Shown here in pieces: positions 20,918 to 59,395 of a stretch of 64,000 nt of DNA (the first letter of the stretch is position 1; every line of letters starts with the position of its first letter). The notes beneath the pieces are model-generated. The model saw only the letters and a program-made list of their open reading frames with translations. It was not told the origin of the DNA and ran no database searches. Source of the DNA: an uncultured Gammaproteobacteria bacterium (GTDB taxonomy: Bacteria > Patescibacteriota > Microgenomatia > Daviesbacterales > UBA10151); assembly GCA_964393545.1 (NCBI GenBank), contig CAYMUB010000058.1:12297-76296 (forward strand). Direction: 5' to 3'. The translations under genes and the position numbers were made by a program.

Positions 20918-22771
20918 TCAGAAATTGAATTTGAATTCTTTGTCAGTTTCTAAGTTAAGATCAGCTTTTTGAGAACCATTGATTTTAATTTTATAGTGAA
21001 AATCTTTTGCTCCAGGTTGTTTTTGAATTAATAATCTATATTCTCCCTTTGGTTGATAAGGTAGTTCATATTCCACTTCCAGTTTCCTGCTGTTTTGAGG
21101 CCTGACTTGTATAAAGGCTTCAAACACTGTTTTATCTAAATCCTCTATAGTGGTAACTGGATCTTCAGATCCTTTGGATGAAATTAACTTACTCCCTTTT
21201 GGCACATAAAATCTGACATAATCTCTATTAATTCCATTTAACCAAGTATTAAAACCCTGTGGATTTTTATACTCTATAGAGATTTTCTTTTTGACAGTTC
21301 CATCTTTTTGAATATCAATTTCTTGTGTAACTGTTTGTTCTACATAAATATTAGACTTCCCTCCGGCAAAATTAGCATCATTGATATGCAAATAGTCCTG
21401 CCTGCCGGCAGGCAGGTCACTATCAAATTGTTTTATTTCTCCAGTCCAATTTAATTTAGATAAAGCTTTTTGACTCTTTTCATCATGCATAAAAAACATT
21501 ATATGCTTATTATTTGCCAGCCTGGCAACAGCCTCAATAAGTTGCGGTAATTTTTCAATATCTGCTCCTACTGATCTGGCTAAAATCTGCTGCATTAATA
21601 CTCCTAAAACTGCTTTCCTATCCTTTTCTCCTTTAGCTGCTATCTCGGCATAAGATTCAAGTTCATAAATTACATTTGGGCAGTTACATCTTTTATCAAT
21701 CTCTGCTGAATATCTGGTTCCATAAACATCAATTGGCCCTGTCACTTCTATTAGTTGCTCAACCACTTGAGTGTCTATAAAAATTATTCCGTCAAAAGGC
21801 AGACCTTCTCCCAACATCTGATACATTCTCTCAAACTCTTTTGCAGAAGTTGGAACATCAGGAGAGATATTTGAATCCCTCATGCTCCAGGCAGATCTTA
21901 CTTTCCCGGTAACTTCTGGAAGATATTTTACTATTGGGGCTGGCGGGGTTAATGGACAAATCTTGGTTAGACAAACATGTAACAGTTTTTCATCCAGTCT
22001 ATAGATATCATCTGATGTTGTTGAATTTACCTGTCCATTATTAATAGTCATGGTGGCATAAGCTGTCATAAATCCGCCAGTAGGTCTGATTTCCTTATCA
22101 TTTTGGAAAAGGAGTAAATAATTTTTAGCAGATGGTATACCCAACGCCTGAGGAGCAATCGAAAGAGCATCTTTACCTTCACCTACTGCAATGGCGGCAC
22201 CAAGAATAAAGTTTTTGGCAACTGCCAAATTCTTTTTTATCTCCTTACCTTTAAATTTTTCTGGATATTTATTGGTATCTATATTTTTAACTAAATCTGC
22301 ACCTTTTTTTAAATTTCCTTCCACTTTACCCAAAAGAGGAATTGATTTATCCAGTATTTTTACTGCCTGAGTTGTTCTATCCGGTCCTTTTTTCTCATGA
22401 CCATCAAATCCAAGCTCTACTTCACTTTGAGCAAGATTTGTCAAAATTGTGTCTATGGCAGTTAATTCTTCTGCTCCTGCTCCAACAACTCCTTTAATAT
22501 CAGAGTAATATCCTCCCACAAAGGGAATTATTCTCATCCAGAATAAGAAATTCAAAGAAAAGTTTGCTAAGTTTAAACCATTTTTTGTCGCACTGGTTTC
22601 ATTTTTTAGTGAATTGAAGTTTTGCAGTTTATAGGCATTTACCAGACTCTTACCATGAGATGAGGCTTGTTTTAAACCTATGTAAGTAAATAAAGCAGGA
22701 ATAATGGTAAAAAATATCAAGATACCCAAAATAACAGAAATTCTAATCAGATTCTTCTTTGGTTTTCTCAT
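20918..22771 (-). CDS. DUF4012-like large extracytoplasmic protein with N-terminal TM anchor
   Basis: The TM anchor is LIRISVILGILIFFTIIPALF. The motif LLLFQNDKEIRPTGGFMTAYAT matches the remembered DUF4012 signature. It sits at the head of the polysaccharide locus. The start is placed at the internal Met to avoid a 55-nt overlap. Confidence 0.55.
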   Translation of the reverse strand: MRKPKKNLIRISVILGILIFFTIIPALFTYIGLKQASSHGKSLVNAYKLQNFNSLKNETSATKNGLNLANFSLNFLFWMRIIPFVGGYYSDIKGVVGAGAEELTAIDTILTNLAQSEVELGFDGHEKKGPDRTTQAVKILDKSIPLLGKVEGNLKKGADLVKNIDTNKYPEKFKGKEIKKNLAVAKNFILGAAIAVGEGKDALSIAPQALGIPSAKNYLLLFQNDKEIRPTGGFMTAYATMTINNGQVNSTTSDDIYRLDEKLLHVCLTKICPLTPPAPIVKYLPEVTGKVRSAWSMRDSNISPDVPTSAKEFERMYQMLGEGLPFDGIIFIDTQVVEQLIEVTGPIDVYGTRYSAEIDKRCNCPNVIYELESYAEIAAKGEKDRKAVLGVLMQQILARSVGADIEKLPQLIEAVARLANNKHIMFFMHDEKSQKALSKLNWTGEIKQFDSDLPAGRQDYLHINDANFAGGKSNIYVEQTVTQEIDIQKDGTVKKKISIEYKNPQGFNTWLNGINRDYVRFYVPKGSKLISSKGSEDPVTTIEDLDKTVFEAFIQVRPQNSRKLEVEYELPYQPKGEYRLLIQKQPGAKDFHYKIKINGSQKADLNLETDKEFKFNF

Positions 22772-23427
22772 ATTGCTCCTTTGCCGGATAAAACCGCCGG
22801 AATGGTTTTTAATATAATCCAAAAATCATATAGTAGTGATCTTTTTTCAACATACTGCGCATCCATTTCTACCCTTTTATCAAAATTTATTTCAGACCTG
22901 CCAGTCACCTGCCAAAGACCGGTTAAACCAGGCTTACCTGACAGGATAATCTTAACAAATTTTTTTGATGCAGGGTATTTGATTTGTTGTTCTTCCAATT
23001 CATAAGGATAGTAAGCCCTGGGTCCCACAATGCTCATCTCTCCAATTAGTATATTTAAAAACTGAGGCAGTTCATCTATAGAAAACCTTCTGATAAATTT
23101 ACCTACCCTGGTTATCCTGGGATCATTAAAAATTTTATAACTGTTTTTCTTATACTCATCTAAAAGCTTAGGGTTATTTTCAAGTAATTGATGGGCATTT
23201 TGCACCATAGAGCGGAATTTATATAATTTAAACTGCTTGCCATTCTTTCCTGCCCTCATGGGAGTATCAGCCAAAAACGGACCCGGGGAATCAAATTTTA
23301 TAGCCAAAGCCACCAGTAACAGGAGTGGGGAAAGAAATACCAAGCCAAAGACAGATCCAACAATATCCACAAATCTTTTGTAAAAACTATATAACATCTT
23401 AAACTTTAGTGTACAACAAAGAGGCAA
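22768..23427 (-). CDS. Initiating polyprenyl-phosphate sugar-1-phosphate transferase (bacterial sugar transferase, PglC/WbaP C-terminal-domain type)
   Basis: FKRFVDIVGSVFGLVFLSPLLLLVALAIKFDSPGPF...KLYKFRSM...DELPQFLNILIGEMSIVGPR is the canonical Bac_transf motif. Confidence 0.8.
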   Translation of the reverse strand: MPLCCTLKFKMLYSFYKRFVDIVGSVFGLVFLSPLLLLVALAIKFDSPGPFLADTPMRAGKNGKQFKLYKFRSMVQNAHQLLENNPKLLDEYKKNSYKIFNDPRITRVGKFIRRFSIDELPQFLNILIGEMSIVGPRAYYPYELEEQQIKYPASKKFVKIILSGKPGLTGLWQVTGRSEINFDKRVEMDAQYVEKRSLLYDFWIILKTIPAVLSGKGAI

Positions 23428-24418
23428 CTATTTGCACAAAATTTTTTTTGAAGATTTCTTTGCTAAATTTACTGGCATTTTCTTTACAGTTATCACTCTT
23501 AATATTTAAAGAATGTAATTTATTCATTGCCTCTTTTAAAGATTCTTTGCTTTGATCATTAAAAAAAATTCCGGTCTTACTTTCTATCACTGTTTCTAAA
23601 ACCCCGCCTTTTTTAAATGCTATCACCCTCTTACCCAAAGCCTGAGCTTCAAGCGATGCTAATCCAAAATCCTCTTCTCCGGGAATTATTAAAGCCTTAC
23701 ATCCTGCCAAGATTTTGATCACCATCTGATCACTTAAAGTACCATCAATAACCTTTAATTCTGCTCCTAAGTCTTTGCATGATTCTATAGCCAAATCAAA
23801 TCTTTTATACTTATTGGGTCTGCCAATTACTACAAAATAACCTCCATCAAATGTTTCAATATCTTTAAATCTGTCTAAATCAATAAAAGGGTAAACAACT
23901 TTTGCCTCCCTTTGGTACGTCCTGTTAATTCTTCTTCTGGAATTTTCTGATCCGGCAATAAAATAATCAACCCTGGAGGATGAAATTTGATCATATAATC
24001 TAAGCTTAGACATTAAACTTTCAAGAACTCCAAAATTTCCCATACCGGAAAAGTGCCAAAGGAATCTAGGTGGTGTATGACAGTAACAGATGTGTTTAGT
24101 TTGAGGCTTTGTAATTATAGATTTGGCAAAACGGGTGGTATGAGAAATAACCAAATCAAAATCATCAAAATTAAACTGCTCAAATGCTAAAGGGTAAAGC
24201 GGCAACAAGGCTTTATAGAGTTTTTTCCAAACCGGAATTTTTTGTAAAAAAGATGTGATAATTTTTTTACCTGAAAAGTTCTTTGCCAGGATGTTATTTT
24301 GTGAATCAAAAACTGAGGTAAAAATTGGCGCTTCTGGATAGATTTCACAAAGCCCTAACAGTACTCTTTCCGCCCCTCCCCATTGCACTAAATCATCATG
24401 AACTAAAGCTACGCGCAT
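23399..24418 (-). CDS. Glycosyltransferase family 4 (GT-B)
   Basis: The N-terminus is MRVALVHDDLVQWGGAERV. The C-terminal EX7E-like region reads ALIIPGEEDFGLASLEAQALG. Confidence 0.8.
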   Translation of the reverse strand: MRVALVHDDLVQWGGAERVLLGLCEIYPEAPIFTSVFDSQNNILAKNFSGKKIITSFLQKIPVWKKLYKALLPLYPLAFEQFNFDDFDLVISHTTRFAKSIITKPQTKHICYCHTPPRFLWHFSGMGNFGVLESLMSKLRLYDQISSSRVDYFIAGSENSRRRINRTYQREAKVVYPFIDLDRFKDIETFDGGYFVVIGRPNKYKRFDLAIESCKDLGAELKVIDGTLSDQMVIKILAGCKALIIPGEEDFGLASLEAQALGKRVIAFKKGGVLETVIESKTGIFFNDQSKESLKEAMNKLHSLNIKSDNCKENASKFSKEIFKKNFVQIVASLLYTKV

Positions 24419-25527
24419 TGTAAGTAGATCTCCAAAGTTTTTTTTGCTAAAACTTCCCAGCTAAAATTAAGTACTCTTTTTTTCCCTTTTAAAATTAAAT
24501 CTTGTCTTAACCTTTCCGATTTTAAAACCTGATTTATCTTGTTTTCGATATCTTGTTGATCTTTAGCATTAAAGTAAATTGCTGCATCTTCACCCACTTC
24601 GGGTAAACTACCGGCATCAGAAGAAACAACCGGAACCCCGCAGGCCATAGCTTCCAATAGTGGTATGCCAAATCCCTCTTCCAATGAAGGTAGAATAAAC
24701 GCTTCGGCATTTTTATATAGTGTTCCTAATTCTTTATCAGAAACAAATCCTGTAAAAATAAGGTCTTTATGTTGAAATTCTTTTTTAATCCTTTGCCAAA
24801 AATAGTGGTCTTGTCCGGATAAAACTAAGGTTAAATATTGATATTGCTTTCTTAAATTTATAAATGCCTTAATCAATCCTTCTACATTTTTATGAAGATG
24901 AGCATTTCCTACATAAAAAATATAGGGGGGTTTGATATTAAATTTTTTCATTACTGAATTTATTTGATTTGAGTTAATTTTGTTTATTAGGGTGTGTATT
25001 TTATCATCAACCGCTTCATAAGTTACCACAATTTTTTCATCTTTAACATTCCATTCTTCTTTAAGTAGATTTTTTACATATTCTGAAGGAACTAAAATTT
25101 TTTGGGATTTTGAAACCGCATTTTTAAAAACAGTTTTATATCCAATTTGCTTTGCTTTATAGATTAACGGGGCAAGTGTGGTTGCCCGTCTCATTTGAAA
25201 ATGTTGGTGGATTAGATCATGTATAGTAACCACAAACTTCCCGGTATAGAAAATTGGTACATTGAAATGAGGGAAATGAACTAAGTCCAATTTAAACCTA
25301 TTCAAAAGACTTGGTAACTTAAACTGTTCTGCAAAACCATACCAGGTAAAATTTGCACTTACTCCAGTAAAGTTTTTGGTATTCTCAAATTTTTCAAAAT
25401 CTTTTTCCAGTAAAAAAATAAAATACTGATTCTTTTTATCCAAATTCTTAAGCTGATGGATTAAATTTCTTAGATATCTTCCTACACCTGATTCGTCATA
25501 AAACCTGGCATCAATTCCTATTTTCAT
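24409..25527 (-). CDS. Glycosyltransferase family 4 (GT-B)
   Basis: GIDARFYDESGVGRY...FILPSLEEGFGIPLLEAMACGVPVV. Confidence 0.8.
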   Translation of the reverse strand: MKIGIDARFYDESGVGRYLRNLIHQLKNLDKKNQYFIFLLEKDFEKFENTKNFTGVSANFTWYGFAEQFKLPSLLNRFKLDLVHFPHFNVPIFYTGKFVVTIHDLIHQHFQMRRATTLAPLIYKAKQIGYKTVFKNAVSKSQKILVPSEYVKNLLKEEWNVKDEKIVVTYEAVDDKIHTLINKINSNQINSVMKKFNIKPPYIFYVGNAHLHKNVEGLIKAFINLRKQYQYLTLVLSGQDHYFWQRIKKEFQHKDLIFTGFVSDKELGTLYKNAEAFILPSLEEGFGIPLLEAMACGVPVVSSDAGSLPEVGEDAAIYFNAKDQQDIENKINQVLKSERLRQDLILKGKKRVLNFSWEVLAKKTLEIYLQCA

Positions 25528-26711
25528 TTTCTACCCAATTCTTCATAAATCTTACTTAAATTCTTTGCAATGGGATCCCAATCATATTTTTCTAAAACCT
25601 TTTCTTTAGCATTGTTTGCAATTTCCTGGTATAACTTTTGGTTATTCAAAAGGTTTACCGCTGCTTTTGCGATTTCTTGGGGAGTATCTCTAATGATAAC
25701 TTCTTTTCCATCCTTAACATTAGTTCCTCTTATTCCAATGGAGGTTGTTACAACAGGTAAGCTGGATGCAAAAGCTTCAAAGTTTTTATAACGGGTTCCC
25801 CCACCGCCATAAATTGGCGCCACTAAAACAGAGGCTTGTTGATAAACTTCTCTTACATCAGAAACTTCATCAACCCGGATATTGTCTGATTCAAGATTCA
25901 AGAAAAAATCCTTAGCATCCTTACCAATTATCCATAATTTAGCATCAGGAATACTTTTTAAAATATCAGGCCAGACTTTAGAAATTAATACTTCTACTGC
26001 TTCTCTATTTTGCAACCAGGTAAAATTTCCCAAATAAAGAATTACTGGGGATTTTGATTTCTCTTTAATTTTTTTTCCAAAATAATTGCTATCTACACCA
26101 TTCGGTACAATATCAACATGAAGTGATGGCAGTTGGAATAACATTGATTTTTTATCTTCCTCAGACATAGCAACAACCCTACTCGCTCTTTTCCAATATT
26201 TAAGCTCCCAATGTTTCATTTTTGCTACATCAATATATAAAAGTTGTTTTATTCCGGGCAATTTATAGCTGTCTGCAAAATGGCGGTAAACTAGATATTC
26301 AATGGTTTGCTCAACCAGCAGTATTGGGATTTTAGTTTTTGGGATATGTGGCATAACATAAAAAGTTTCAGCATGAATTAAATCAAAATCTTCTTCTTTT
26401 AATTTTTTTTCAATACCTAAGCGTTCACCTTTTGCCCAATTTCTGATTACTAAAAATGGATAAAAACTTAAACCGGTTTTGAGAATATTTTTTAAAGTCC
26501 AAGGCTTCTCTGGCCGGTTAAACACCTGCACTTCTTTGCAAAACTTTTCCAGTTCTGAAACATATTTTCTTTCACTGTTATTTTTCACTAAACAAAAAAG
26601 TGTAATCTGATGTCCTAGAGATGAAAGTCTTTTTATTAAATTGTATGACCTGGTCTGCCCTCCTGTTAAAAGCGGGTAAGGCAGGTATGGTGTCAGCATT
26701 AAAATCTTCAT
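25524..26711 (-). CDS. Glycosyltransferase family 4 (GT-B)
   Basis: MKILMLTPYLPYPLLTGGQTRSYNL is followed by a C-terminal GT1 domain. Confidence 0.8.
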   Translation of the reverse strand: MKILMLTPYLPYPLLTGGQTRSYNLIKRLSSLGHQITLFCLVKNNSERKYVSELEKFCKEVQVFNRPEKPWTLKNILKTGLSFYPFLVIRNWAKGERLGIEKKLKEEDFDLIHAETFYVMPHIPKTKIPILLVEQTIEYLVYRHFADSYKLPGIKQLLYIDVAKMKHWELKYWKRASRVVAMSEEDKKSMLFQLPSLHVDIVPNGVDSNYFGKKIKEKSKSPVILYLGNFTWLQNREAVEVLISKVWPDILKSIPDAKLWIIGKDAKDFFLNLESDNIRVDEVSDVREVYQQASVLVAPIYGGGGTRYKNFEAFASSLPVVTTSIGIRGTNVKDGKEVIIRDTPQEIAKAAVNLLNNQKLYQEIANNAKEKVLEKYDWDPIAKNLSKIYEELGRK

Positions 26712-31870: not shown

Positions 31871-31871
31871 A

Positions 31872-42308: not shown

Positions 42309-42333
42309 ATTCCACCTGTCATTGCGAGGAAGT

Positions 42334-46673: not shown

Positions 46674-46684
46674 AGTTTACAAGA

Positions 46685-46963: not shown

Positions 46964-47010
46964 ATTTTAAAACTTGCTTCAATTTACAAGAACAAGATAT
47001 AATCTTACGA

Positions 47011-51604: not shown

Positions 51605-52599
51605 TTATTTTTAATATACCAATCAATTGTCTTTTTTAATCCATCAACAAAAGGTGTTCTTGCAATAAATCCAAATTTTTCTTTTGCTTTAGTATTATCA
51701 CTATTTCTCCTTGGACTTCCATCTGGCTTGGAAATATCAAAAATAACTTTTCTTTTCTGTCCGCATATTTTTAAAATTATCTCAATTAACTCCTTAATTG
51801 ATATTTCCTCATCTGTCCCTAAATTAATTGGATCCGGTACGCAAATTTTTTCAATTGCAAGCATTATCCCTTCTGCCGCATCCTCTGCGTATAGAAATGC
51901 CCTGGTTTGATTACCACTTCCCCAAACTACTAAAGGGTTCTCTCCGTCAAAAACCCGTTTTATTAAAGCAGGAATTACATGAGAAAGCTGGGGATCAAAA
52001 TGATCTCTGGGACCGTAGCAATTATAAGGCCTAACTATCCCTATATTCATACCGTATTCCTCCGAATAATATCTTCCCAACAGTTCTCCCATTCTCTTCC
52101 CCCAACCATAACCTCCATTTGTAGGTTCAGGCTCATTTCTAAACCCCTCTGATTCGGGAGTAGGTATAATCGCATCTCTTGGATATACACAAGCAGAAGA
52201 AACTTGTAAAAACCTCTCCACCTTAGCAAGCCTTGCCGCCTCCATCATATTACAAGCAATCAATAAATTCTCCCGCAAAATACTCCCATGATGTGCTCTA
52301 TTATATTCTATACCTCCAACTCTGGCTGCCATATTTATAACAATATTCTGATCCTTGCATGCTATCTGGCAGGTTTTTAAATTCTCGATATTACCATCTA
52401 TTAATTTAATTTTATCTTTAACGCTATTTATATTCTCAAGCTTGTTGGAACGAATATGGTCTAAAACAGTCACTACTGCACCATTTGCTACCAATCTTTC
52501 AGTAACATGGCTTCCAACAAACCCACATCCACCTGTTACCAAAACTTTTTTATTTTGCCAGAAGGAACTTTGTTCATCTTTCAAAAAAACCTTTTTCAT
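51601..52599 (-). CDS. NAD(P)-dependent sugar epimerase/reductase (extended SDR). It resembles GDP-fucose-synthase/CDP-abequose-synthase-type 4-keto-6-deoxy sugar reductases.
   Basis: VLVTGGCGFVGSHV is a Rossmann motif. YNCYGPRDHFDPQLSHVIPALIKRV is close to the Fcl motif NLYGPHDNF..SHVIPAL. Confidence 0.75.
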   Translation of the reverse strand: MKKVFLKDEQSSFWQNKKVLVTGGCGFVGSHVTERLVANGAVVTVLDHIRSNKLENINSVKDKIKLIDGNIENLKTCQIACKDQNIVINMAARVGGIEYNRAHHGSILRENLLIACNMMEAARLAKVERFLQVSSACVYPRDAIIPTPESEGFRNEPEPTNGGYGWGKRMGELLGRYYSEEYGMNIGIVRPYNCYGPRDHFDPQLSHVIPALIKRVFDGENPLVVWGSGNQTRAFLYAEDAAEGIMLAIEKICVPDPINLGTDEEISIKELIEIILKICGQKRKVIFDISKPDGSPRRNSDNTKAKEKFGFIARTPFVDGLKKTIDWYIKNK

Positions 52600-52601
52600 T
52601 T

Positions 52602-53774
52602 TTAACTAAATATTTCAATCAACTCTTTAATTTCGGCTTGTGTTAACTCTGGATTATTCCCAAAATATAAACCTTGTTCGTGTATAATCCTAGCATTTAC
52701 GTTTTCATCAATGCGATTATTTATATATTTTTTGTAGAATGGTTGCAATTCCATATCTCCACCTACAATTGGTCTAATCTCTACTTTATCTTTACATTTC
52801 TCTACTAAATCGTTTCTAATTTTCTGAGATTTACAAATTACTGGTATCGCAAAATTTGAGAGAAAATCTATATGCTGATACTTTAAGGAATAGTATTTAT
52901 TAGTTTTTTTATAAATTGAAGTTGCTATTTTTAAAAAATTATCTCTTCTCCTGGAGAGGATTTCATCCAGATATTGCATTTGTGCATTTCCGATAAATCC
53001 ATTAATTTCTGATGTTCGCAAATTATACCCTAAATCATAGAACGTATAACGAGAGTAAAATGTAGAATTAACATTATGCTTCACCCGAATTTTTAATTGT
53101 TTTTGTTCTGTTAAGTTTCTATCCCATCCATGTGCTCTAACCATCTGAAGCATTATTTCAAGCTCTTCATTATCCGTACAAACTGCCCCACCTTCAATTG
53201 TCGATAAGTGATGACCGACATAAAAAGAAAATGTTGAAGCCATTCCAAAATTTCCAAGCTTACGACCTTTATATTCTGTTCCTAAGGACTCACAATTATC
53301 TTCAATTAATATAATCTTTTTCTTGTCACATATTTTCTTAATTTCATCTATATCATCACAAAATCCCAGCAAATTAGTAAGAAAAAGCATTTTGAGTTGG
53401 TATTTTTCAAGAACCTGAAGCAATTTTTCACTTGAAACGTTTAATGTATCCAGCTCAACATCTACAGGTACTGTACGTAATCCCAGCTGCATAAGTGGCA
53501 TAACATTGGTAGACCAAGTCACAGCAGAAAAACCTACATAGTCATCTTTTTTTAATTTTCCTAAATTGAGAAGTGCCTGAATTATAGCAAGATTAGCTGA
53601 ACTACCACTATTAACCATAACGCAATGTTTTCTTCCTTGCCATTTAGCAAATCCTATTTCAAACTTCTTGCATTCTTTTCCAATGCTTAGCTGATCTGAA
53701 GCCAGAATAAACTTACAAAGCTTTCTTTTTATTTCCTCCTCTTTATAAAATGTTGATTTAACAAGTTGAATCAT
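52602..53774 (-). CDS. DegT/DnrJ/EryC1 family PLP/PMP enzyme, predicted nucleotide-sugar 3-dehydratase (E1/ColD type)
   Basis: The motif FSFYVGHHLSTIEGGAV places His where aminotransferases of this family carry the Schiff-base Lys. That substitution is the hallmark of CDP-4-keto-6-deoxyglucose 3-dehydrase (E1) and of ColD. Confidence 0.75.
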   Translation of the reverse strand: MIQLVKSTFYKEEEIKRKLCKFILASDQLSIGKECKKFEIGFAKWQGRKHCVMVNSGSSANLAIIQALLNLGKLKKDDYVGFSAVTWSTNVMPLMQLGLRTVPVDVELDTLNVSSEKLLQVLEKYQLKMLFLTNLLGFCDDIDEIKKICDKKKIILIEDNCESLGTEYKGRKLGNFGMASTFSFYVGHHLSTIEGGAVCTDNEELEIMLQMVRAHGWDRNLTEQKQLKIRVKHNVNSTFYSRYTFYDLGYNLRTSEINGFIGNAQMQYLDEILSRRRDNFLKIATSIYKKTNKYYSLKYQHIDFLSNFAIPVICKSQKIRNDLVEKCKDKVEIRPIVGGDMELQPFYKKYINNRIDENVNARIIHEQGLYFGNNPELTQAEIKELIEIFS

Positions 53775-53813
53775 TGATATTTTAGGCGGGCCTAACTCCC
53801 TACTATAGCCTAA

Positions 53814-54860
53814 TCACTTCATAAGAACAACTGATGTTTTTTCGGTTCTAAAATATATCTTATAGATGTTGAAAATATTTGTAGAAATCATTATGCTGCC
53901 AAAAATATCTTTATCTCTAGCTTTCCTTAAACTTTGAACTTTTGATCTCTCTTTTAATGTATCTGATAAGAAAAATAAACTCCAAGCAAGTCCTTGCAAA
54001 ACTCCTAAAATTGCTGCAAAGCTTCCTTTTCTAAAAAGTACAGAAACTGCTCCTAAAGTATTAAGGATTAAAGAAAAGGGTAAGTATTTTATCGTATTAG
54101 AAAGCTCATAATTTTTAATTAACATTCTTATAGAGTTTTTACAAAGATGAAAATAAAGTTTATAGTTTAAATTATGTACTTTTGTGTAATGATAAACTTT
54201 CGAATTTGGAGCTAATACAACTCTATAGCCTGCAATCCATATTCTCCAGGAAAAATCTAAATCATCAGTAGTATGCTTAAGTTTTAGATCAAAACCCCCT
54301 ATCTTGCCTGCAACTTCTTTCCTAACAGCCAAAGCTGCTCCTAAAGCAATGATTTCCTCTTCCTTTTCAAATTGCCCATTATCTTTTTCTCCTCTTCCTA
54401 AAGGGATTCCAAAACCTGTGTAGGGATACAATTTCATCCCAATCTCTTGAATAACATCAGTTTTGTCAAAGTCAAAAATTTTGCATTGAACTCCTCCTAT
54501 AGTCTTATCTTTTGAAAAAACTTGAGAAATACCTTGTAACCAGTTCCTATCTACCTTAGTATCATTATCTAAAAATACCAAAATATCTCCCTTTGCTTCT
54601 TTGATAGCCCTATTTCTGCTAAAGGGTACACCTCTATTGACCTCATTTATTAAAATTCTGATTCTAGCATCCTTTTTTGCAAATTCATTAATTATTTCAA
54701 TACTAGAATCTGTTGACTTATTATCTATAAATATAATTTCATAATTCTTTGTGGAGGATTTTAATACTGATGTAATACAAGTCTTTAAATATTTCTCACC
54801 ATTACGATTTGCGATAATTATAGAAATAAGAGGGAGGTTAGTTTTCATATACTTATACAA
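53814..54860 (-). CDS. Glycosyltransferase family 2 with C-terminal TM segments
   Basis: LISIIIANRNGEKYLKTCI...IFIDNKSTDSS...FLDNDT is present. Confidence 0.75.
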   Translation of the reverse strand: MYKYMKTNLPLISIIIANRNGEKYLKTCITSVLKSSTKNYEIIFIDNKSTDSSIEIINEFAKKDARIRILINEVNRGVPFSRNRAIKEAKGDILVFLDNDTKVDRNWLQGISQVFSKDKTIGGVQCKIFDFDKTDVIQEIGMKLYPYTGFGIPLGRGEKDNGQFEKEEEIIALGAALAVRKEVAGKIGGFDLKLKHTTDDLDFSWRIWIAGYRVVLAPNSKVYHYTKVHNLNYKLYFHLCKNSIRMLIKNYELSNTIKYLPFSLILNTLGAVSVLFRKGSFAAILGVLQGLAWSLFFLSDTLKERSKVQSLRKARDKDIFGSIMISTNIFNIYKIYFRTEKTSVVLMK

Positions 54861-54955
54861 ATGTTTTACCTATTCTATAAGATCTTAAACTAATTTATCA
54901 ACCTATCAACTTGACTTATAGAGAAATATTGATTTAGTATTGATAAGATTAAAAT

Positions 54956-55732
54956 ATGAAAGTCATAATACTTTGTGGTGGCATCGGATATAGGCTTAAA
55001 GAAGAAACGGAATTTAAACCAAAACCAATGGTTTCTATCGGTAATCAACCTATTCTATGGCACATAATGAAAATTTATTCACACTTCGGATTTAATGAAT
55101 TTATTATTGCCTTAGGATATAAGGGTGATTATATAAAAGATTATTTTTTAAACCAGAAATATTTCACTGATAATTTTACTCTTAATACCAAAAACGGATT
55201 TGTTAAACTACATAAAAACAATACAGATAATAAAGATGATTTTAAAATTACGTTTGTTGATACAGGACAAGAAACTCTACCTGGTGAACGTATTCTTAGA
55301 GTAAAAGATTTTATACCAGAAACTGATCAAGATTTTATGGTGACATATGGAGATGGTGTATCAGATGTAAATATTGAACAATTAGTTAAATTTCATAAAA
55401 AACATAATCTAGTTGGGACAGTTACAGGTGTTCATCCAAGAAGTAAATACGGACTTTTAACAATAGACAAAAACAATGTTGTACAAAATTTTTTAGAAAA
55501 ACCGGTACTTGAGGAGTGGATTAATGGCGGATTTATGATCTTTAAGAGAGAGTTTTTTTCATACCTTAGAAAAGGGGAGTTTGAACATCCAGCCATTAAA
55601 AGACTTATCAACAATAAGCAGCTTTCTGTTTTTATTCACGATGGATTCTGGCACTCAATGGATTCCTATCCAGATGTTGATAATCTTAATAAACTATGGA
55701 ATGAGGATCCAAAGTGGAAAATCTGGAAATAG
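54956..55732 (+). CDS. rfbF: Glucose-1-phosphate cytidylyltransferase
   Basis: MKVIILCGGIGYRLKEETEFKPKPMVSIGNQPILWHIMKIYSHFGFNEFIIALGYKG matches canonical RfbF/DdhA. Confidence 0.85.
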   Translation: MKVIILCGGIGYRLKEETEFKPKPMVSIGNQPILWHIMKIYSHFGFNEFIIALGYKGDYIKDYFLNQKYFTDNFTLNTKNGFVKLHKNNTDNKDDFKITFVDTGQETLPGERILRVKDFIPETDQDFMVTYGDGVSDVNIEQLVKFHKKHNLVGTVTGVHPRSKYGLLTIDKNNVVQNFLEKPVLEEWINGGFMIFKREFFSYLRKGEFEHPAIKRLINNKQLSVFIHDGFWHSMDSYPDVDNLNKLWNEDPKWKIWK

Positions 55733-56793
55733 AAAAAGAAGATTTATCTTATATTTTAGCCAATGCCAAAGAAGAATTTGAAGTTTTAGCTGGAAATAAA
55801 ATTCTTTTTACAGGAGCTAATGGTTTCTTAGGATATTACTTTATAAAATCGATTCTCTACTGGAATGAAATTAATCCCAATAGAAAAATCACTCTTTATG
55901 CATTAGATACTTTTGAATCGGGTGTACCAAGCTGGTTAAAAAATCCGCAAACAAAAATTCTTAGGAAAGATGTTACAAAATTTAAAATACCTGCAAATAT
56001 AAATCTTGACTATATTATTCATGCAGCTTCTATTGCTTCCCCAATTTTTTATAGACAATTCCCTATAGAAACAATGAAAGCCAATATTCAAGGACTCATA
56101 AATGCGTTGGAATATATGGTTTCTAAAAAAGATACAAAAAATTCGGTTAAAGGACTTTTATTTTTTTCATCGAGTGAGATATATGGAGATCCTACTAAGG
56201 GAAATATCCCCACCCCTGAGACTTATAGGGGAAATGTCTCTTGTACAGGTCCCAGGGCCTGCTACGATGAATCAAAGCGGTTCGGAGAAACACTTTGTGT
56301 TAATTATTCCAGTGTTCACAATCTTCCTATTAAAATTGCCAGACCATTTAATAATTATGGCCCTGGGTTAAAACTCACCGATGGTCGAGTGATCCCTGAT
56401 TTTGCAAAGGATATCTTAGCAAATGACAACATCACTCTCCTCTCACAAGGCTCCCCGACACGAACATTCTGCTATATAACCGATGCTATCGTAGGTTACA
56501 TAAAGATACTAATAAAAGGTAAAAATGGGGAAAGCTATAATATTGGGGTGGAAGAAGAAGAAATTTCTATGACTGATCTGGCAAAGAAAATGAAAGATAT
56601 ATCAGCTAAACTTTTTGAATATAGAGGCGAGGTAGTTATGGAAAAAAGTAAAGATCAAAATTATCTAACCGATAGCCCAAACAGAAGATGTCCTCAAATC
56701 TCAAAAGCCATGAAAGATTTAGAGTATAATCCTAAGGTTTCCTTGGACGAAGGACTTAAAAATACTTTAATTTGGTATAAAGGCAATTTATAA
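55714..56793 (+). CDS. NAD-dependent epimerase/dehydratase (extended SDR). By context it is the likely CDP-glucose 4,6-dehydratase.
   Basis: KILFTGANGFLGYY is the Rossmann motif and the catalytic triad lies in YGDPTK...Y..SK. It is translationally coupled to rfbF. Confidence 0.65.
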   Translation: MENLEIEKEDLSYILANAKEEFEVLAGNKILFTGANGFLGYYFIKSILYWNEINPNRKITLYALDTFESGVPSWLKNPQTKILRKDVTKFKIPANINLDYIIHAASIASPIFYRQFPIETMKANIQGLINALEYMVSKKDTKNSVKGLLFFSSSEIYGDPTKGNIPTPETYRGNVSCTGPRACYDESKRFGETLCVNYSSVHNLPIKIARPFNNYGPGLKLTDGRVIPDFAKDILANDNITLLSQGSPTRTFCYITDAIVGYIKILIKGKNGESYNIGVEEEEISMTDLAKKMKDISAKLFEYRGEVVMEKSKDQNYLTDSPNRRCPQISKAMKDLEYNPKVSLDEGLKNTLIWYKGNL

Positions 56794-58118
56794 TGAAAAT
56801 CTCTATTGTTGGAACAGGATATGTTGGATTAGTTACAGGAATATCTCTTAGTGAGTTAGGTCACGATGTTAATTGTATTGATAGTGACGAAGATAAGGTT
56901 TCAAAGATTAATAAAGGCATTTCTCCATTCTATGAACCAGGACTTGATGAAATACTTAAAAAATCATTAAAGAAAAATTTATCGGCTACAGTTGATTTAG
57001 AAAAAGCAGTTTGCCAATCAGATGTAATAATCATTGCAGTTGGTACCCCGACAATTAACGATAGTATTGATTTATCCTTTATTGAAAAGGCTTCTGAACA
57101 AATTGGCCAAGCCATATCAAAGGCAAAAAAATATCAGATAGTTGCTGTTAAGTCTACTGTTTTACCCGGAGTTAGTGAAAAGGTGGTAAAACCTATTCTT
57201 GAGAAATTCTCAAAGAAAAAAGCAGGAAAGGATTTTGGGCTTTGTATGAATCCGGAGTTTCTAAGAGAAGGCAGCGCTTTAGATGATGCTCTAAACCCTG
57301 ATAGGATTGTTATTGGGCAATTTGACGATAAAAGTGGTAAGGAATTTGCAAAAATTTATTCCAAAGTATCAGCCCCCAAAATATTTACTAATCTTCCCAC
57401 AGCAGAACTCACAAAATATGCTGCCAATGCGCTTTTTGCAACACTTATAAGTTTTTCCAATGAAATTGCCAGAATCTCAGAAAGCATTGGAAAAGTAGAT
57501 GTTCTGGATGTATGGAGTGGTGTGCATCTTGATAGAAGATTAAGTCCCATACAAGGTAATACAAGGATTAAACCAGGAGTATTAAGTTATATCCTTTCTG
57601 GATGTGGCTTTGGAGGAAGCTGTTTTCCAAAAGATATAAAAGCACTAGCTTCTTTTGCCAAGGATCAAGGAGTAGAAAACCCTTTTATTCAAAGTGTCAT
57701 AGACATTAATAATACTCAACCACATAGAGTAACTTTACTTCTTAAAAATGCTCTTGGAGAAAACTTGAAAGACAAAAAAATTGCTATTTTAGGTCTTAGC
57801 TTTAAGCCAAACACAGATGATACTCGTGAATCTCCTGCATTAGCTATCATAAAGGAACTTATATCAGAAGGTGCTAAAGTGATTTTGCATGATCCAATGG
57901 CAAAAAGTGCAAATTATCCTATGGCAAGTAAAGCAAAAGATGCTATAAAAGAAAGCGATGCAGCAGTTGTAGTTACTTCCTGGGAGCAGTATCGTAAACT
58001 GACTCCACAATTTTTCAAAGAAAATATGAAAAAACCTATTGTGATTGATGGAAGAAGAATATATGATAAAAATTCCTTTTTAAAGGCTGGAGTCATATAT
58101 AAAGGTATAGGCCTATGA
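56793..58118 (+). CDS. ugd: UDP-glucose 6-dehydrogenase / nucleotide-sugar dehydrogenase
   Basis: MKISIVGTGYVGLVTG is the NAD-binding motif. GFGGSCFPKDI contains the catalytic Cys motif. Confidence 0.85.
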   Translation: MKISIVGTGYVGLVTGISLSELGHDVNCIDSDEDKVSKINKGISPFYEPGLDEILKKSLKKNLSATVDLEKAVCQSDVIIIAVGTPTINDSIDLSFIEKASEQIGQAISKAKKYQIVAVKSTVLPGVSEKVVKPILEKFSKKKAGKDFGLCMNPEFLREGSALDDALNPDRIVIGQFDDKSGKEFAKIYSKVSAPKIFTNLPTAELTKYAANALFATLISFSNEIARISESIGKVDVLDVWSGVHLDRRLSPIQGNTRIKPGVLSYILSGCGFGGSCFPKDIKALASFAKDQGVENPFIQSVIDINNTQPHRVTLLLKNALGENLKDKKIAILGLSFKPNTDDTRESPALAIIKELISEGAKVILHDPMAKSANYPMASKAKDAIKESDAAVVVTSWEQYRKLTPQFFKENMKKPIVIDGRRIYDKNSFLKAGVIYKGIGL

Positions 58119-59395
58119 AATTAAGTTATCCTAAAAATCATTTTGTAAAAACAGGACATATTTCAAATTGTCAGGTATGTAATTCTCAAAAACTACATAC
58201 AATTTTGGACCTAGGTCATCAACCTCTTTGTGATAGCTTGCTCACCAAAGATATGTTAAATCAACCTGAAAAAACTTACCCCTTAAGGATGGTTTGGTGT
58301 GAAAATTGTACTCTAGTACAAATAGATTATTGTGTCTCAGGTGAAGAAGTCTATCATCCAGATTATCCTTACAGAAGCGGGATAACAAAAGAGCTGGCAA
58401 CCTATCAAGAAAGTATCGCTTCCTCTTTGGTAAAAAAATACAATTTAACCCCTAAAGATCTTGTTATAGATGTTGGATCAAATGATGGTACTTTATTAAA
58501 AGGTTTTCAAAAAGAGAATATTAAAGTATTAGGGGTTGAACCAACCAATATAGCAAAAATTGCTATCGCCAGTGGTGTAGAAACAGTCCAAGCTTTTTTT
58601 GATATTAAAACTTCAGAAAATATAAAGAAAAAATACGGGAAAGCTGCCTTGATTATAACTACCAATACTTTTGCTCATATGCAAACCTTGGGTGAATTTA
58701 TAATGGGTGCATATAATTTATTAGAGGATGATGGAGTTTTTGTTAATGAAACTCATTACATACTTGATGTAATAAGAGGCGGTCAGTTTGATACTATTTA
58801 TCACGAGCATTTGCGAACCTACTCACTAAAATCACTAATCAGTTTATTTAACCAATACGATTTCACAGTCACTGATGTTGAGAGAGGCGATAGATATGGA
58901 GGAAATATTAGAGTAATTGCCACCAAAGGTAAGGGCAGACAGGTTAGTACAGAAGTTAAAAAATTATTAAAATTGGAAGAAGAATTTGGACTTGATAAAA
59001 TTGAAACATATGTAAAATTTGCTGATCGTGTAAAACAGGCTCGTTTGGAATTTATGGACTTTGTAATTAAAACAAAAAAATCCGGCAAATCCATTGTTGG
59101 AAACTCAAGTCCAGCCAGAGCATCAACTCTTTTAAATTATTATGGGGTGGACCCTGAGTTACTCCCCTATCTTGCAGAACAACCTACTTCTTTAAAACTC
59201 AATATGTTCCTACCCGGAAAACATATTCCTATTGTAAATAACCAAAGACTTATAGTTGAACAGCCTGATTTCGTAGTTATCTTAGCCTGGCATTATGCCA
59301 AACCTATTATGGAGCAATTAAAGGCTAGGGGATTAAAATCAGATTTTGTAATCCCACTTCCCGATTTTAAGATAGTTAAAAATTCAGAAGTTTAA
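58115..59395 (+). CDS. NDP-hexose C-methyltransferase (TylCIII-like). It has a zinc ribbon, a class I SAM methyltransferase domain, and the C-terminal C-methyltransferase domain.
   Basis: The N-terminal CxxC...C ribbon is NCQVCNSQK...CDS. DVGSNDGT is SAM motif I. The length (about 410-430 aa) and layout fit the Methyltransf_13/14 sugar C-methyltransferases. Confidence 0.7.
   Translation: MKLSYPKNHFVKTGHISNCQVCNSQKLHTILDLGHQPLCDSLLTKDMLNQPEKTYPLRMVWCENCTLVQIDYCVSGEEVYHPDYPYRSGITKELATYQESIASSLVKKYNLTPKDLVIDVGSNDGTLLKGFQKENIKVLGVEPTNIAKIAIASGVETVQAFFDIKTSENIKKKYGKAALIITTNTFAHMQTLGEFIMGAYNLLEDDGVFVNETHYILDVIRGGQFDTIYHEHLRTYSLKSLISLFNQYDFTVTDVERGDRYGGNIRVIATKGKGRQVSTEVKKLLKLEEEFGLDKIETYVKFADRVKQARLEFMDFVIKTKKSGKSIVGNSSPARASTLLNYYGVDPELLPYLAEQPTSLKLNMFLPGKHIPIVNNQRLIVEQPDFVVILAWHYAKPIMEQLKARGLKSDFVIPLPDFKIVKNSEV

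Follow-up and report, generated by a model that had tools for sequence, protein, structure and literature searches.

A 64,000-nucleotide stretch of DNA (the window) was found to contain a large cell-envelope glycan locus in which seven polytopic proteins are GT-C glycosyltransferases by fold or family. The locus probably (at roughly 0.6) couples the assembly of a lipid-PP-linked oligosaccharide with GT-C decoration at the outer face of the membrane, with a wall polysaccharide or lipoglycan as the preferred acceptor. The testable parts of an earlier, sequence-only reading of this DNA were supported, namely the GT-C identity, the loop-1 acidic residues, and the presence of a DPMS-like GT2. That reading had also proposed a small-genome organism, which proved right in kind: the relatives are CPR Daviesbacteria, and the host is a CPR/Microgenomates bacterium near Candidatus Daviesbacteria. 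This uncultured bacterium with a tiny genome devotes more than 40 kb to one conserved, operon-like surface-glycan locus.

Gene content and extent of the locus

The interval 20918-59395 holds 31 tightly packed genes, is 99% coding, and has mostly overlapping stop and start codons. It encodes one phosphoglycosyl transferase (PGT), six GT4 and five GT2 enzymes, a Wzx, a Wzy_C-like protein, and the seven GT-C proteins, together with sugar-nucleotide and tailoring enzymes, and every open reading frame named earlier is present where it had been placed. A minus-strand array runs from its first gene, 53814-54860, to its last, 20918-22822, and encodes the following cytoplasmic assembly enzymes and their membrane partners.

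22768-23427, minus: PGT, small monotopic Bac_transf type, initiating on polyprenyl phosphate (Bac_transf E 1.5e-60; NCBIfam EPS_sugtrans 253.8 bits, WbaP 239.8 bits)
23399-24418, 24409-25527, and 25524-26711, minus: three GT4 enzymes in a row (Glycos_transf_1 and Glyco_transf_4; no TM segments)
28155-29618, minus: Wzy_C-family membrane protein (10 TM segments)
30773-31870, minus: GT4 (Glycos_transf_1 E 1.8e-40)
33391-34425, minus: GT4 (Glycos_transf_1 E 2.4e-19)
37147-37899, minus: short soluble GT2, GmaR/SunS-like clade (Glycos_transf_2 E 6.7e-20; best PDB match GmaR, E 6.2e-20, then SunS)
37896-38843, minus: GT4 (Glycos_transf_1 E 1.2e-27)
40237-41031, minus: short soluble GT2, SunS/GmaR-like (Glycos_transf_2 E 1.4e-13; PDB SunS 1.1e-6, GmaR 3.2e-6)
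41028-42308, minus: Wzx-type (MOP) flippase (Polysacc_synt E 1.1e-17; 11 TM segments)
50516-51604, minus: ordinary GT2 (Glycos_transf_2 E 5.6e-22; best PDB matches GalT1 and chondroitin synthase, not DPMS)
53814-54860, minus: GT2 with one C-terminal hydrophobic segment (Glycos_transf_2 E 1.7e-29; best PDB matches GalT1 and chondroitin synthase)

The Wzy_C match of 28155-29618 scores 30.7 bits, below the gathering cut-off of 31.7, and its orthologues in the relatives L012 and L013 have PF04932; judged by family, possible roles for the protein are those of polymerase, ligase, and PglL-type transferase. The sugar-nucleotide, tailoring, and accessory genes are divided between the array and a plus-strand sugar-nucleotide operon (54956-59395) that diverges from it, with two further genes past that operon.

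20918-22822, minus: DUF4012 membrane-anchored protein, 634 aa (DUF4012 E 4.2e-25; one N-terminal TM)
29618-30166, minus: conserved 182-aa protein with a hydrophobic segment at either end (orthologues only)
30163-30786, minus: hexapeptide-repeat acyltransferase for sugar N- or O-acetylation (Hexapep E 9.8e-14)
39554-40240, minus: SAM-dependent methyltransferase (Methyltransf_11 E 3.1e-18)
46685-46963, minus: 92-aa open reading frame with 2-3 hydrophobic segments (a called gene in L001)
51601-52599, minus: SDR epimerase/reductase (Epimerase E 3.8e-56)
52602-53774, minus: RfbH/ColD-type PMP 3-dehydratase (DegT E 4.2e-65; RfbH 208.8 bits)
54956-55732, plus: glucose-1-P cytidylyltransferase (TIGR02623 271.5 bits)
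55714-56793, plus: UXS/ArnA-like SDR (PRK11908 E 3.6e-32)
56793-58118, plus: UDP-glucose dehydrogenase (UDPG_MGDP_dh domains)
58115-59395, plus: sugar C-methyltransferase (Methyltransf_13/14)
61369-62340, plus: GFO/IDH/MocA oxidoreductase (Pfam)
62322-63983, minus: GT2-methyltransferase fusion (Pfam)

The locus had been taken to end at 59395, but the last two of these genes lie beyond that point, and by Pfam it extends to at least 63983, for a total of more than 40 kb. In the 3-dehydratase, the PLP lysine is replaced by the motif SFYVGHH..EGG. The DUF4012 protein has no match among PDB sequences; its family is reported to be enriched in CPR and tied to capsular/exopolysaccharide (CPS/EPS) loci (PMC6744442). 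No Pfam or NCBIfam match was obtained for 29618-30166, for which L012 and L013 have orthologues (62-65% identity) in the corresponding place. The 92-aa product of 46685-46963 likewise has no family match, has an orthologue at 60% identity in the same place in L004, and is possibly a small membrane partner.

GT-C proteins and a DPM1-like GT2

Together, the seven GT-C genes account for 35% of the interval (13.5 kb). All lie on the minus strand except 45183-46673, the sole plus-strand gene within the array.

26708-28162, minus: GT-C number 1, PMT_2 type, 484 aa (PMT_2 E 8.9e-14, above the gathering threshold; 8 TM segments)
31872-33404, minus: GT-C number 2, divergent PMT_2 type, 510 aa (homologues match PMT_2)
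34422-35783, minus: GT-C number 3, divergent PMT_2 type, 453 aa (homologues with PF13231)
35758-37146, minus: GT-C number 4, PMT_2 type, 462 aa (PMT_2 E 3.8e-12)
42334-45018, minus: GT-C number 5, AftD-like family without annotation, 894 aa (AF2 model and Foldseek)
45183-46673, plus: GT-C number 6, 496 aa (homologues matching PMT_2, and AlphaFold model)
47011-50550, minus: GT-C number 7, AftD-like, 1179 aa (GT-C_AftD E 1.3e-12, above the gathering threshold; 11 TM segments)

Each is polytopic: the hydrophobic segments number 8-11, and TM1 leads into a loop of about 60 aa. Direct Pfam matches above threshold identify three of them (two to PMT_2, one to GT-C_AftD), and three more were assigned via homologues matching PMT_2. 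For two there are high-confidence AlphaFold models, with only GT-C enzymes as their best matches among solved structures; 45183-46673 counts in both of the latter groups. A conserved acidic residue is located just after TM1 in all seven (in gene order from 26708: D33/D41, D40-E41-E42, E36/D56, D24-E25, D37, D30, and E51), and the WWDYG motif is absent from all seven. The proposal that these proteins are GT-C enzymes was upheld throughout by Pfam, homologue families, or AlphaFold/Foldseek; none is a transporter, and all have the GT-C fold or family along with the loop-1 acidic residue.

Among the PMT_2-type proteins, both L012 and L013 keep the loop-1 motif ADWHSWRQxDT of 26708-28162, and in L013 the orthologue additionally matches PF02366 PMT. 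While neither 31872-33404 nor 34422-35783 has a direct Pfam match, the former has 1562 homologues in the representative library, with PMT_2 matched by 50 of the 64 aligned full-length homologues, and in its FDEE motif D40 is near-invariant, with R27 invariant. For 34422-35783, about one third of the 120 matches listed have PF13231 and one has PF09594, and E36 and D56-Q57-H58 are invariant in loop 1. The LWLDEAIN motif of 35758-37146 (D24-E25) is kept down to 36% identity. The 45183-46673 family is kept across Microgenomates classes at about 50% identity (mean column identity 59%), is far more conserved than neighbouring genes, and in Blackburnbacteria has a member adjoining Wzx; the Foldseek top matches of its model are oligosaccharyltransferases, and its structural neighbours include Pmt4, Pmt2, STT3, AglB, and PglB.

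The two AftD-like proteins match each other by blastp (E 2.7e-4). The first, 42334-45018, has no Pfam domain in any of the 120 homologues listed. In its AF2 model (pLDDT 91.4), an N-terminal TM domain and a C-terminal TM anchor flank a beta-rich extracytoplasmic domain of about 450 aa that contains CBM-like modules, and Foldseek returned AftD (6w98, E 2.9e-13) as the best match, followed by AglB, STT3, and AftA. D37, DGGQ143-146, D188, and R190 are invariant. CBM6/CBM4 Foldseek matches span the beta-sandwich modules of the modelled ectodomain, which, together with the AftD match, suggests that a glycan acceptor is favoured. In the second, 47011-50550, the GT-C_AftD match covers profile positions 280-543 of 661, a large ectodomain and C-terminal TM anchor are present, and the loop-1 motif G[SG]G[ED][SV]G (E51) is kept in paralogues of 22-75% identity. 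The first also matches NCBIfam MmpA (E 1.7e-9), an AftD-like membrane protein that shares the AftD membrane domain without shown catalysis (PMC8698533); that such proteins can be non-catalytic counts against the preferred reading.

Of the five GT2s, only the remaining one is closest to Dol-P/Und-P-sugar synthases, the others being GmaR/SunS-like or ordinary.

38845-39567, minus: DPM1/AglJ/PpgS-like GT2, 240 aa, putative polyprenyl-phosphate sugar synthase (PDB and NCBIfam matches)

Its best PDB match is the Dol-P-Man synthase of P. furiosus (Pyrococcus; 5mlz, E 1.2e-17, residues 4-220), with the DAD motif aligned, and the next are ArnC and GtrB. It has the DPM1/GtrB likeness claimed for it, and the specificity for polyprenyl phosphate that went with that claim is putative. 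NCBIfam matches were to AglJ (1.9e-35), Dol-P-hexose transferase (3.6e-16), and PpgS (1.7e-14), every one below its curated cut-off, and the protein has no TM segment or membrane anchor; both observations weigh against the preferred reading.

Assembly model and alternatives

The GT-C genes are interleaved and co-directional with those for the cytoplasmic glycosyltransferases, with overlapping stops and starts, and therefore imply one product; we infer that the two sets are co-transcribed. In the model that we prefer, the small PGT would prime polyprenyl phosphate inside the cell, and the six GT4 and several GT2 enzymes would build a lipid-PP-linked heterooligosaccharide whose sugars may come in part from the locus's own enzymes for CDP-deoxyhexose and UDP-GlcA-derived sugars, acetylation, and methylation. 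Wzx would flip this unit, and the Wzy_C-family protein would polymerise or ligate it. In parallel, the DPM1-like GT2 would put a monosaccharide on polyprenyl phosphate, and after flipping, the seven GT-C enzymes (four or five small PMT_2-like and two large AftD-like, the latter with carbohydrate-binding-like ectodomains) would branch or extend the glycan at the outer face using lipid-phosphate-linked donors. The locus is closer in character to mycobacterial cell-wall assembly than to an ordinary capsule cluster, and its ratio recalls the assembly of lipomannan, lipoarabinomannan (LAM), and arabinogalactan in Mycobacteriales. Precedent exists in Gram-positive bacteria, where a soluble GT-A, a small membrane protein, a Wzx-type flippase, and a GT-C decorate wall polysaccharides (PMC8035078). 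Two further observations sit awkwardly with the preferred model: there is one synthase for seven GT-C enzymes, and Pfam found no GtrA-type flippase, LCP ligase, or chain-length regulator within the window.

We regard as rather unlikely, though deserving of weight, a protein O-glycosylation machine in which PMT_2-type GT-C enzymes would use Pol-P-sugar donors to put single sugars on Ser/Thr of secreted proteins (S-layer proteins, pilins, or sortase substrates, for example), and the Wzy_C protein, as a PglL-like O-oligosaccharyltransferase, would transfer the Wzx-flipped glycan en bloc to protein. The Wzy_C family does include PglL-type enzymes, relatives of PMT_2 include protein O-mannosyltransferases, and the PMT_2 and PF02366 matches and the structural neighbours of 45183-46673 are all in keeping with such a role. 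The GT2s 37147-37899 and 40237-41031 are nearest GmaR and SunS, both of them glycosyltransferases of proteins or peptides, and with the PMT_2 kin they make a protein acceptor possible; AglJ, the best NCBIfam match of the DPM1-like GT2, acts in archaeal S-layer N-glycosylation. However, no candidate glycoprotein gene lies inside or adjoining the locus, WWDYG is missing, the CBM-like modules of the large AftD-like proteins suit glycan acceptors, and six GT4 enzymes, a PGT, and a Wzy-type protein exceed what a typical O-glycan pathway needs. It is improbable that some of the GT-C-fold proteins, instead of transferring single sugars, are en-bloc ligases that join the completed lipid-PP-glycan to its final anchor, or non-catalytic scaffolds or transport accessories as proposed for MmpA. 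The conservation, Wzx proximity, and oligosaccharyltransferase matches of the 45183-46673 family, the MmpA match of 42334-45018, and the lack of an LCP ligase in the window point that way; against it, all seven families keep the acidic loop-1 residue that a catalytic GT-C enzyme should have, and WWDYG is missing.

An ordinary, horizontally acquired and strain-variable O-antigen/capsule island, with polymerases or transporters as its membrane proteins, is very improbable and was largely refuted. Although the PGT, Wzx, Wzy_C, GT4/GT2, and deoxysugar genes are typical of such loci, all seven membrane proteins proved to be GT-C enzymes, the locus has the same GC content as the dcw and housekeeping genes around it, and its flanks contain no mobility genes, tRNA, or repeats. 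Conservation in relatives, raised earlier as a check, was also found: relatives among Daviesbacteria and Woesebacteria have a collinear locus (40-90% identity), Daviesbacteria JACPDA01 is one of several that share the order from PGT to AftD-like genes over the same range, and relatives with conserved gene order likewise have seven GT-C genes. It is therefore a lineage-conserved cell-envelope glycan locus and not a foreign acquisition; the earlier term "island" is misleading because the locus is vertically conserved and syntenic. Some module variation, as an ordinary island would show, does occur: the orthologue of 31872-33404 is missing from L013, the closest relative, and L005 and L006 have different AftD-like paralogues.

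Setting and gene content of the glycan locus

GC content is ~33% across the whole window, and the glycan locus at 20918-59395 has the same GC as its flanks. The left end of the window is occupied by a dcw cluster (FtsZ, FtsA, FtsQ, MurG, FtsW, MraY, Mur ligases, MurA, a PBP, MraW and MraZ), after which come genes for an aminoacyl-tRNA synthetase, RecO and a PIN protein. No tRNA or Rfam feature was found when the window was scanned. Toxin-antitoxin-like genes break up these housekeeping clusters in two places: a CopG-antitoxin-family ORF (11356-11643) with an upstream 107-aa ORF lies within the dcw region at 11061-11643 (+), and a PIN-domain gene at 19548-19970 (-) adjoins recO. Next to mraZ, a 519-aa protein with no Pfam match (15155-16714, +) contains GCTVGCAWCG, a CX3CX2C motif resembling the radical-SAM cluster signature.

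Every ORF listed in the sequence-only reading was found at the locus, which holds 31 genes at 99% coding density. Between 54860 and 20918 the genes form a minus-strand array in which most stop and start codons overlap; 45183-46673 (+) is the sole plus-strand gene inside this array. Since promoter and terminator scans gave chance-level results, operon structure was judged from gene packing. The reading had ended the locus at 59395; its right end seems to lie further on, with glycan genes (an oxidoreductase and a GT2-methyltransferase fusion) continuing to 63983.

Genes of the glycan locus, with families assigned by Pfam and NCBIfam up to 59395, and of its apparent continuation to the right
20918-22822 (-): DUF4012 anchor protein
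22768-23427 (-): Bac_transf phosphoglycosyl transferase (PGT)
23399-24418, 24409-25527, 25524-26711, 30773-31870, 33391-34425 and 37896-38843 (all -): six GT4 enzymes
26708-28162, 31872-33404, 34422-35783, 35758-37146, 42334-45018 and 47011-50550 (all -), and 45183-46673 (+): seven polytopic proteins
28155-29618 (-): Wzy_C-like protein
30163-30786 (-): hexapeptide acyltransferase
37147-37899, 38845-39567, 40237-41031, 50516-51604 and 53814-54860 (all -): five GT2 enzymes
39554-40240 (-): SAM methyltransferase
41028-42308 (-): Wzx
51601-53774 (-) and 54956-59395: sugar-nucleotide genes
59404-60084: histidine phosphatase
60092-61360: 422-aa protein of no family, with a HIT-like motif (NLHIHVTGY)
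61369-62340: GFO/IDH/MocA oxidoreductase
62322-63983: GT2-methyltransferase fusion

The DUF4012 protein has no relative in the PDB. Among the sugar-nucleotide genes, the DegT-family protein at 52602-53774 (-) carries SFYVGHH..EGG, in which His-His replaces the PLP-binding Lys, the signature of RfbH/ColD-type PMP-dependent 3-dehydratases; its best NCBIfam model is RfbH (208.8 bits). Taken with a glucose-1-P cytidylyltransferase (54956-55732, +) and a Methyltransf_13/14 C-methyltransferase (58115-59395, +), its sequence suggests that a CDP-3,6-dideoxy or C-methyl-branched hexose is made. For the CDP-glucose 4,6-dehydratase and the E3 reductase, no clear candidate was seen among the genes here. 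Of the parts of a Wzx/Wzy pathway, the window has the PGT and Wzx, together with the Wzy_C-like protein, which scores 1 bit below the Pfam gathering threshold and whose orthologues are annotated Wzy_C. No PCP/Wzz chain-length regulator, LCP ligase or WaaL-type ligase was recognised in the window. Of the parts of a transmembrane glycosylation system, a synthase-like GT2, GT-C proteins and one Wzx are present, though this Wzx may instead serve a lipid-PP-oligosaccharide; no GtrA-family flippase was found in any ORF scanned within the window.

Two small proteins gave no usable Pfam match. The 182-aa product of 29618-30166 (-) belongs to no family, has hydrophobic segments at both ends and, in related contigs L012 and L013, has a counterpart of 62-65% identity that likewise lies between the Wzy_C and acetyltransferase genes. 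In topology it resembles a small version of a chain-length regulator. The 92-aa ORF at 46685-46963 (-), with 2-3 hydrophobic segments, lies in a gap flanked by two GT-C genes. Contig L001 has it as a called gene, and a 60% identical ORF occupies the same place in L004.

GT-C proteins and the DPM1-like GT2

All seven polytopic proteins belong to the GT-C superfamily, with the fold modelled for two of the seven. Each has 8-11 hydrophobic segments and a ~60-residue loop after TM1, and an acidic residue in this first loop is conserved in 7/7, its membrane side being assigned from topology. Three pass a Pfam gathering threshold: 26708-28162 (52.4 bits) and 35758-37146 (47.1 bits) match PMT_2 (PF13231; GT39/GT83-like), and 47011-50550 matches GT-C_AftD (PF11847, formerly DUF3367) with 46.9 bits against a cut-off of 26, the match covering only profile positions 280-543 of 661. 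Acidic loop-1 residues kept in the orthologues of these three are D33/D41 in 26708, D24-E25 in 35758 and E51 in 47011 (D in paralogues). Both 26708-28162 and 35758-37146 also gave weak matches to Agl23 and archaeal STT3 models. For the 1179-aa AftD-like protein at 47011-50550 there was no exact-sequence match on record, no PDB sequence match and no CBM detected by sequence.

Because the remaining four have no Pfam match of their own, they were placed through homologues and models. The window copies of 31872, 34422 and 45183 fall below the PMT_2 threshold, and only their homologues match. For 31872-33404, an exhaustive phmmer search returned 1562 relatives, with PMT_2 in 50 of the 64 aligned full-length homologues and D40 of an FDEE motif nearly invariant. 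PF13231 was found in about one third of the homologues of 34422-35783 among the matches listed, where E36 and D56-Q57-H58 are invariant, and in some homologues of 45183-46673, where D30 is nearly invariant. Profile searches with the family alignments of 42334, 45183 and 31872 against PDB sequences found nothing, so fold comparison was needed. The AlphaFold model of 45183-46673 reached a pLDDT of 91.8 from a 59-sequence alignment, and this family is kept at ~50% identity across several Microgenomates classes, far above its neighbours. No Pfam domain was present in any of 120 homologues of 42334-45018 among the matches listed. Its model (pLDDT 91.4) has mycobacterial AftD as the nearest structure (E 2.9e-13, TMq 0.51, 11% identity), then AglB, STT3 and AftA; D37 is invariant. 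The ectodomain is beta-rich and matches CBM6 and CBM4 modules, with a C-terminal TM helix at 861-886. The protein weakly resembles 47011-50550 and matches the model of MmpA, an AftD-related membrane domain (PMC8698533). Pfam searches with the isolated ectodomains of 47011 and 42334 gave no usable match.

The sequence-only reading had proposed these seven as candidate GT-C enzymes and named transporters, or a first loop devoid of the acidic motif, as what would speak against this. Neither was found, since all seven are GT-C by family, homologue or fold and keep the loop-1 acidic residue. A WWDYG motif in an extracytoplasmic C-terminal domain, looked for as the mark of oligosaccharyltransferases (STT3/PglB/AglB), was absent. 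The seven are too divergent for recent duplicates; comparing the GT-C families with one another, and 31872 with these, by hhalign gave probabilities of <=1%, uninformative with alignments of such low diversity. Co-location with a DPM1-like GT2 and the PGT pathway is what suggests that the seven use lipid-phosphate or lipid-diphosphate sugar donors.

That GT2, 38845-39567, is a 240-aa protein with no TM segment. It aligns with the Pyrococcus Dol-P-Man synthase (PfDPMS 5mlz; E 1.2e-17 over residues 4-220), followed by ArnC and GtrB, and its DAD motif pairs with that of 5mlz (QDADLEYNP against MDADLQHPP). It thus shares with DPM1, GtrB and ArnC a GT-A domain with DxD and similarity running through the membrane-interface region. 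Among NCBIfam models it matches AglJ, Dol-P-hexose transferase and PpgS best, all far below curated cut-offs (AglJ 122.7 versus 325; PpgS 53.8 versus 370; ArnC 52.4 versus 529), and the PpgS-like similarity spans its full length. The earlier description of this gene as DPM1-like is upheld by the 5mlz alignment, DAD motif included; its polyprenyl-phosphate specificity is inferred. Synthases without TM segments, such as human DPM1, PpgS and GacI, require partners. The sole candidate membrane partner here is the 92-aa ORF at 46685-46963, which may be a GacJ/DPM3-like protein or else a small flippase.

The other four GT2s were considered as further Pol-P-sugar synthases and rejected, as PDB comparison gave none of them DPMS-type neighbours. 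The short soluble enzymes 37147-37899 (-) and 40237-41031 (-) are kept in all related loci. The first is closest to Listeria GmaR (E 6.2e-20) and SunS-type enzymes, and the second to GmaR/SunS, not to polysaccharide GT2s; GmaR is a flagellin O-GlcNAc transferase, and SunS-type enzymes are peptide S-glycosyltransferases. The remaining two, 50516-51604 and 53814-54860, are closest to ordinary GT2s. Since none of the four resembles the DPMS type, 38845-39567 is the one plausible polyprenyl-phosphate sugar synthase predicted for the seven GT-C proteins.

Proposed assembly, acceptor and known systems

In the proposed pathway, the PGT would prime polyprenyl phosphate in the cytoplasm, and the GT4 and GT2 enzymes would assemble a heterooligosaccharide from the products of the encoded sugar pathways. 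One of these (glucose-1-P cytidylyltransferase, RfbH/ColD-type 3-dehydratase, C-methyltransferase and SDR reductase) would yield a 3,6-dideoxy or branched sugar, and the other (Ugd and a UXS/ArnA-like decarboxylase) a UDP-pentose. Wzx would flip the lipid-linked unit and the Wzy_C protein would polymerise or ligate it. In parallel, the DPM1-like enzyme would produce a Pol-P-sugar, with which the GT-C enzymes could branch or extend the glycan at the outer face. The apparent gaps might be filled by the 92-aa membrane ORF and Wzx, an idea taken from GacI/GacJ/GacK/GacL because that precedent uses a small membrane partner and a Wzx-type flippase.

The acceptor could be a wall-associated polysaccharide or lipoglycan, or it could be protein, and O-glycosylation of protein is a live alternative as the product of the locus. 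For protein speak the PMT-type relatives of the GT-C proteins, the GmaR/SunS-like GT2s, the AglJ similarity of the DPM1-like GT2 and the Wzy_C family, of which PglL-type enzymes are members. A carbohydrate acceptor is favoured by the CBM-like ectodomain predicted in the model of 42334 and by the interleaving of GT-C genes with cytoplasmic glycosyltransferase genes. By analogy, the 7:1 ratio of GT-C proteins to synthase and the AftD-like enzymes recall the assembly of mycobacterial lipomannan, LAM and arabinogalactan.

In Mycobacteriales, Ppm1/PpgS synthases feed PimE, MptA-C, EmbA-C and AftA-D for these same glycans. The proposed plan is similar in that a few TM-less DPM1-like synthases, or just one, would supply many GT-C enzymes, which polymerise and branch a glycan on the outer side of the membrane. 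Further likenesses are the AftD-like proteins, with CBM-like modules in the modelled ectodomain of 42334, and the PpgS-like similarity of 38845-39567. However, identity to mycobacterial AftD is only ~11%, and 42334-45018 has ~11+1 TM helices rather than 16. The window holds no decaprenyl-phospho-arabinose genes (UbiA/DprE-like), the backbone would be built through PGT/Wzx/Wzy_C and not on phosphatidylinositol or galactan, and the phyla are unrelated.

For Gram-positive wall polymers, the C55-P-sugar made by a GT-A enzyme is moved across by a flippase, and a GT-C then uses it to decorate, outside the cell, a polymer built on lipid-PP; soluble GT-A enzymes and Wzx-type flippases can fill these roles, and the genes are embedded in the polymer locus, as with the soluble GT-A, small membrane partner, Wzx-type flippase and GT-C of GacI/GacJ/GacK/GacL (PMC8035078). 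Examples are that system of S. pyogenes, CsdAB/CD/EF and CflA of L. lactis, and GtsABC of B. anthracis beside a Wzx/Wzy secondary cell wall polymer pathway. On the proposed reading, the window locus would share the overall plan, a soluble GT-A, a Wzx-type flippase and the placement within a polymer locus. Whereas the Gram-positive systems have one GT-C per synthase, in 1-3 pairs per genome, here there are seven GT-C proteins and a single recognisable synthase, with no GtrA-type flippase found, two AftD-sized GT-C proteins with large ectodomains and a CPR host.

ArnC/ArnT lipid A modification and actinobacterial Ppm1/Pmt O-mannosylation (PMT_2, GT83, GT39) likewise pair a PMT_2 GT-C with a DPM1/ArnC-like GT2. 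As for ArnC/ArnT, the locus also contains Ugd and a homologue of an ArnA-like decarboxylase, and ArnT and Pmt are among the structural neighbours. Unlike that pathway, a monoderm-like CPR cell has no lipid A, the formyltransferase, deformylase and ArnE/F were not found, the DegT-family gene is of the dehydratase type (His-His) and not an ArnB-type aminotransferase, and there are many GT-C proteins instead of one. Archaeal Agl S-layer N-glycosylation (AglJ, the oligosaccharyltransferase AglB, AglS/Agl23-type GT-C) is approached through the AglJ model of 38845-39567 and the Agl23/STT3 matches of 26708 and 35758. Yet all scores lie far below curated cut-offs, no WWDYG-bearing oligosaccharyltransferase is present, and the pathway is a bacterial PGT/Wzx/Wzy_C one.

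Conservation in relatives and significance

Conservation was assessed by ORF-by-ORF comparison with related contigs. Homologues of three locus proteins, where named, come from Candidatus Daviesbacteria, Woesebacteria, Curtissbacteria, Blackburnbacteria or Microgenomates, and contigs collinear with the locus include Daviesbacteria and Woesebacteria MAGs; the window is accordingly placed in a CPR/Microgenomates lineage near Daviesbacteria. The kept order runs GT4, GT-C 34422, GT-C 35758, GT2, GT4, DPM1-like GT2, methyltransferase, GT2, Wzx, GT-C 42334 and AftD-like GT-C. It is found in the closest relative (L004/L013; 60-90% identity), two Daviesbacteria (L005 and L006/L012; 50-75%), a further Daviesbacteria contig (L010; 50-66%), a Woesebacteria contig that has no 35758 orthologue (L007; 37-51%) and a MAG contig (L011; 36-55%, with a 48-aa fragment at the contig end reaching 69%), and only partly in another MAG contig (L009). 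In L012 and L013 collinearity extends through the left arm as far as the PGT. Variation between relatives is modular, with extra polytopic ORFs in some loci: the 31872 orthologue is absent from L013, and L005/L006 (2472-9542) carry two other AftD-like paralogues in place of 45183 and 47011. Daviesbacteria JACPDA01 has two tandem AftD-like genes of ~1100 aa, 22-25% identical to 47011-50550, and also seven GT-C genes in total. In the more distant Blackburnbacteria (L002/L003), four PMT_2 genes, YfhO and short GT2s surround a 45183 homologue, which adjoins a Wzx-type flippase; the four PMT_2 genes, YfhO and two unassigned polytopic ORFs all lie within 21 kb (1-6846 and 18275-20743).

Conservation in relatives, raised as a check in the sequence-only reading, was thus found as collinear gene order in Daviesbacteria and Woesebacteria contigs; the word island, used there, is misleading. 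Because this order is conserved and GC equals that of the flanks, the locus appears to have been inherited vertically within the lineage rather than acquired from outside. Small genomes are typical of the CPR radiation, Microgenomates envelopes are thought minimal, and the CPR/Patescibacteria envelope mediates episymbiotic life; to our knowledge, it is almost uncharacterised chemically. The locus may amount to ~4-5% of the genome, assuming a size near the 0.69-0.77 Mb single contigs of relatives. Collinearity across Daviesbacteria and Woesebacteria, together with the 35% of the reported interval given over to GT-C enzymes, suggests that a complex surface glycan, assembled extracytoplasmically, belongs to the core traits of this lineage.

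A bolder joint reading, to which we give a probability of only about 0.2, is that Microgenomates assemble a major glycoconjugate of the envelope mostly outside the cytoplasmic membrane by an independently evolved, mycobacteria-like GT-C assembly line. It would include two previously unannotated GT-C families, the AftD-like 42334 with CBM-like ectodomains and the pan-Microgenomates 45183, possibly the long-missing ligase by which the flipped glycan is attached to its wall, lipid or S-layer anchor. If true, the CPR cell surface and host attachment would depend on this locus as a core and probably essential determinant. The enzyme targets offered are one DPM1-like synthase, seven GT-C proteins with candidate catalytic residues and the two unannotated families.

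In the literature searched, neither a conserved locus with many GT-C genes nor the families of 42334 and 45183 were found described, and searches on CPR together with GT-C or glycosylation gave zero or marginal papers. CPR genome papers list multiple 'dolichol-phosphate mannosyltransferase' genes (PMC4736985), in one case with a GT87 (PMC6031116), and DUF4012 is CPR-enriched and envelope-related in a family-content survey (PMC6744442). The Wzx/Wzy pathway and multi-component transmembrane glycosylation are already known in kind; this locus stands out from them by its scale, by having AftD-like members and by the lineage of its host. The locus is a solid, testable lead on the CPR envelope and not a categorically new mechanism.

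Five of the compared records (L004, L005, L008, L009 and L011, several of them TPA MAGs) are titled 'uncultured Gammaproteobacteria bacterium'. Their genes are clearly of the same lineage as the window, their loci are collinear with and 40-90% identical to the window locus, and the titles of these MAGs appear generic or wrong.
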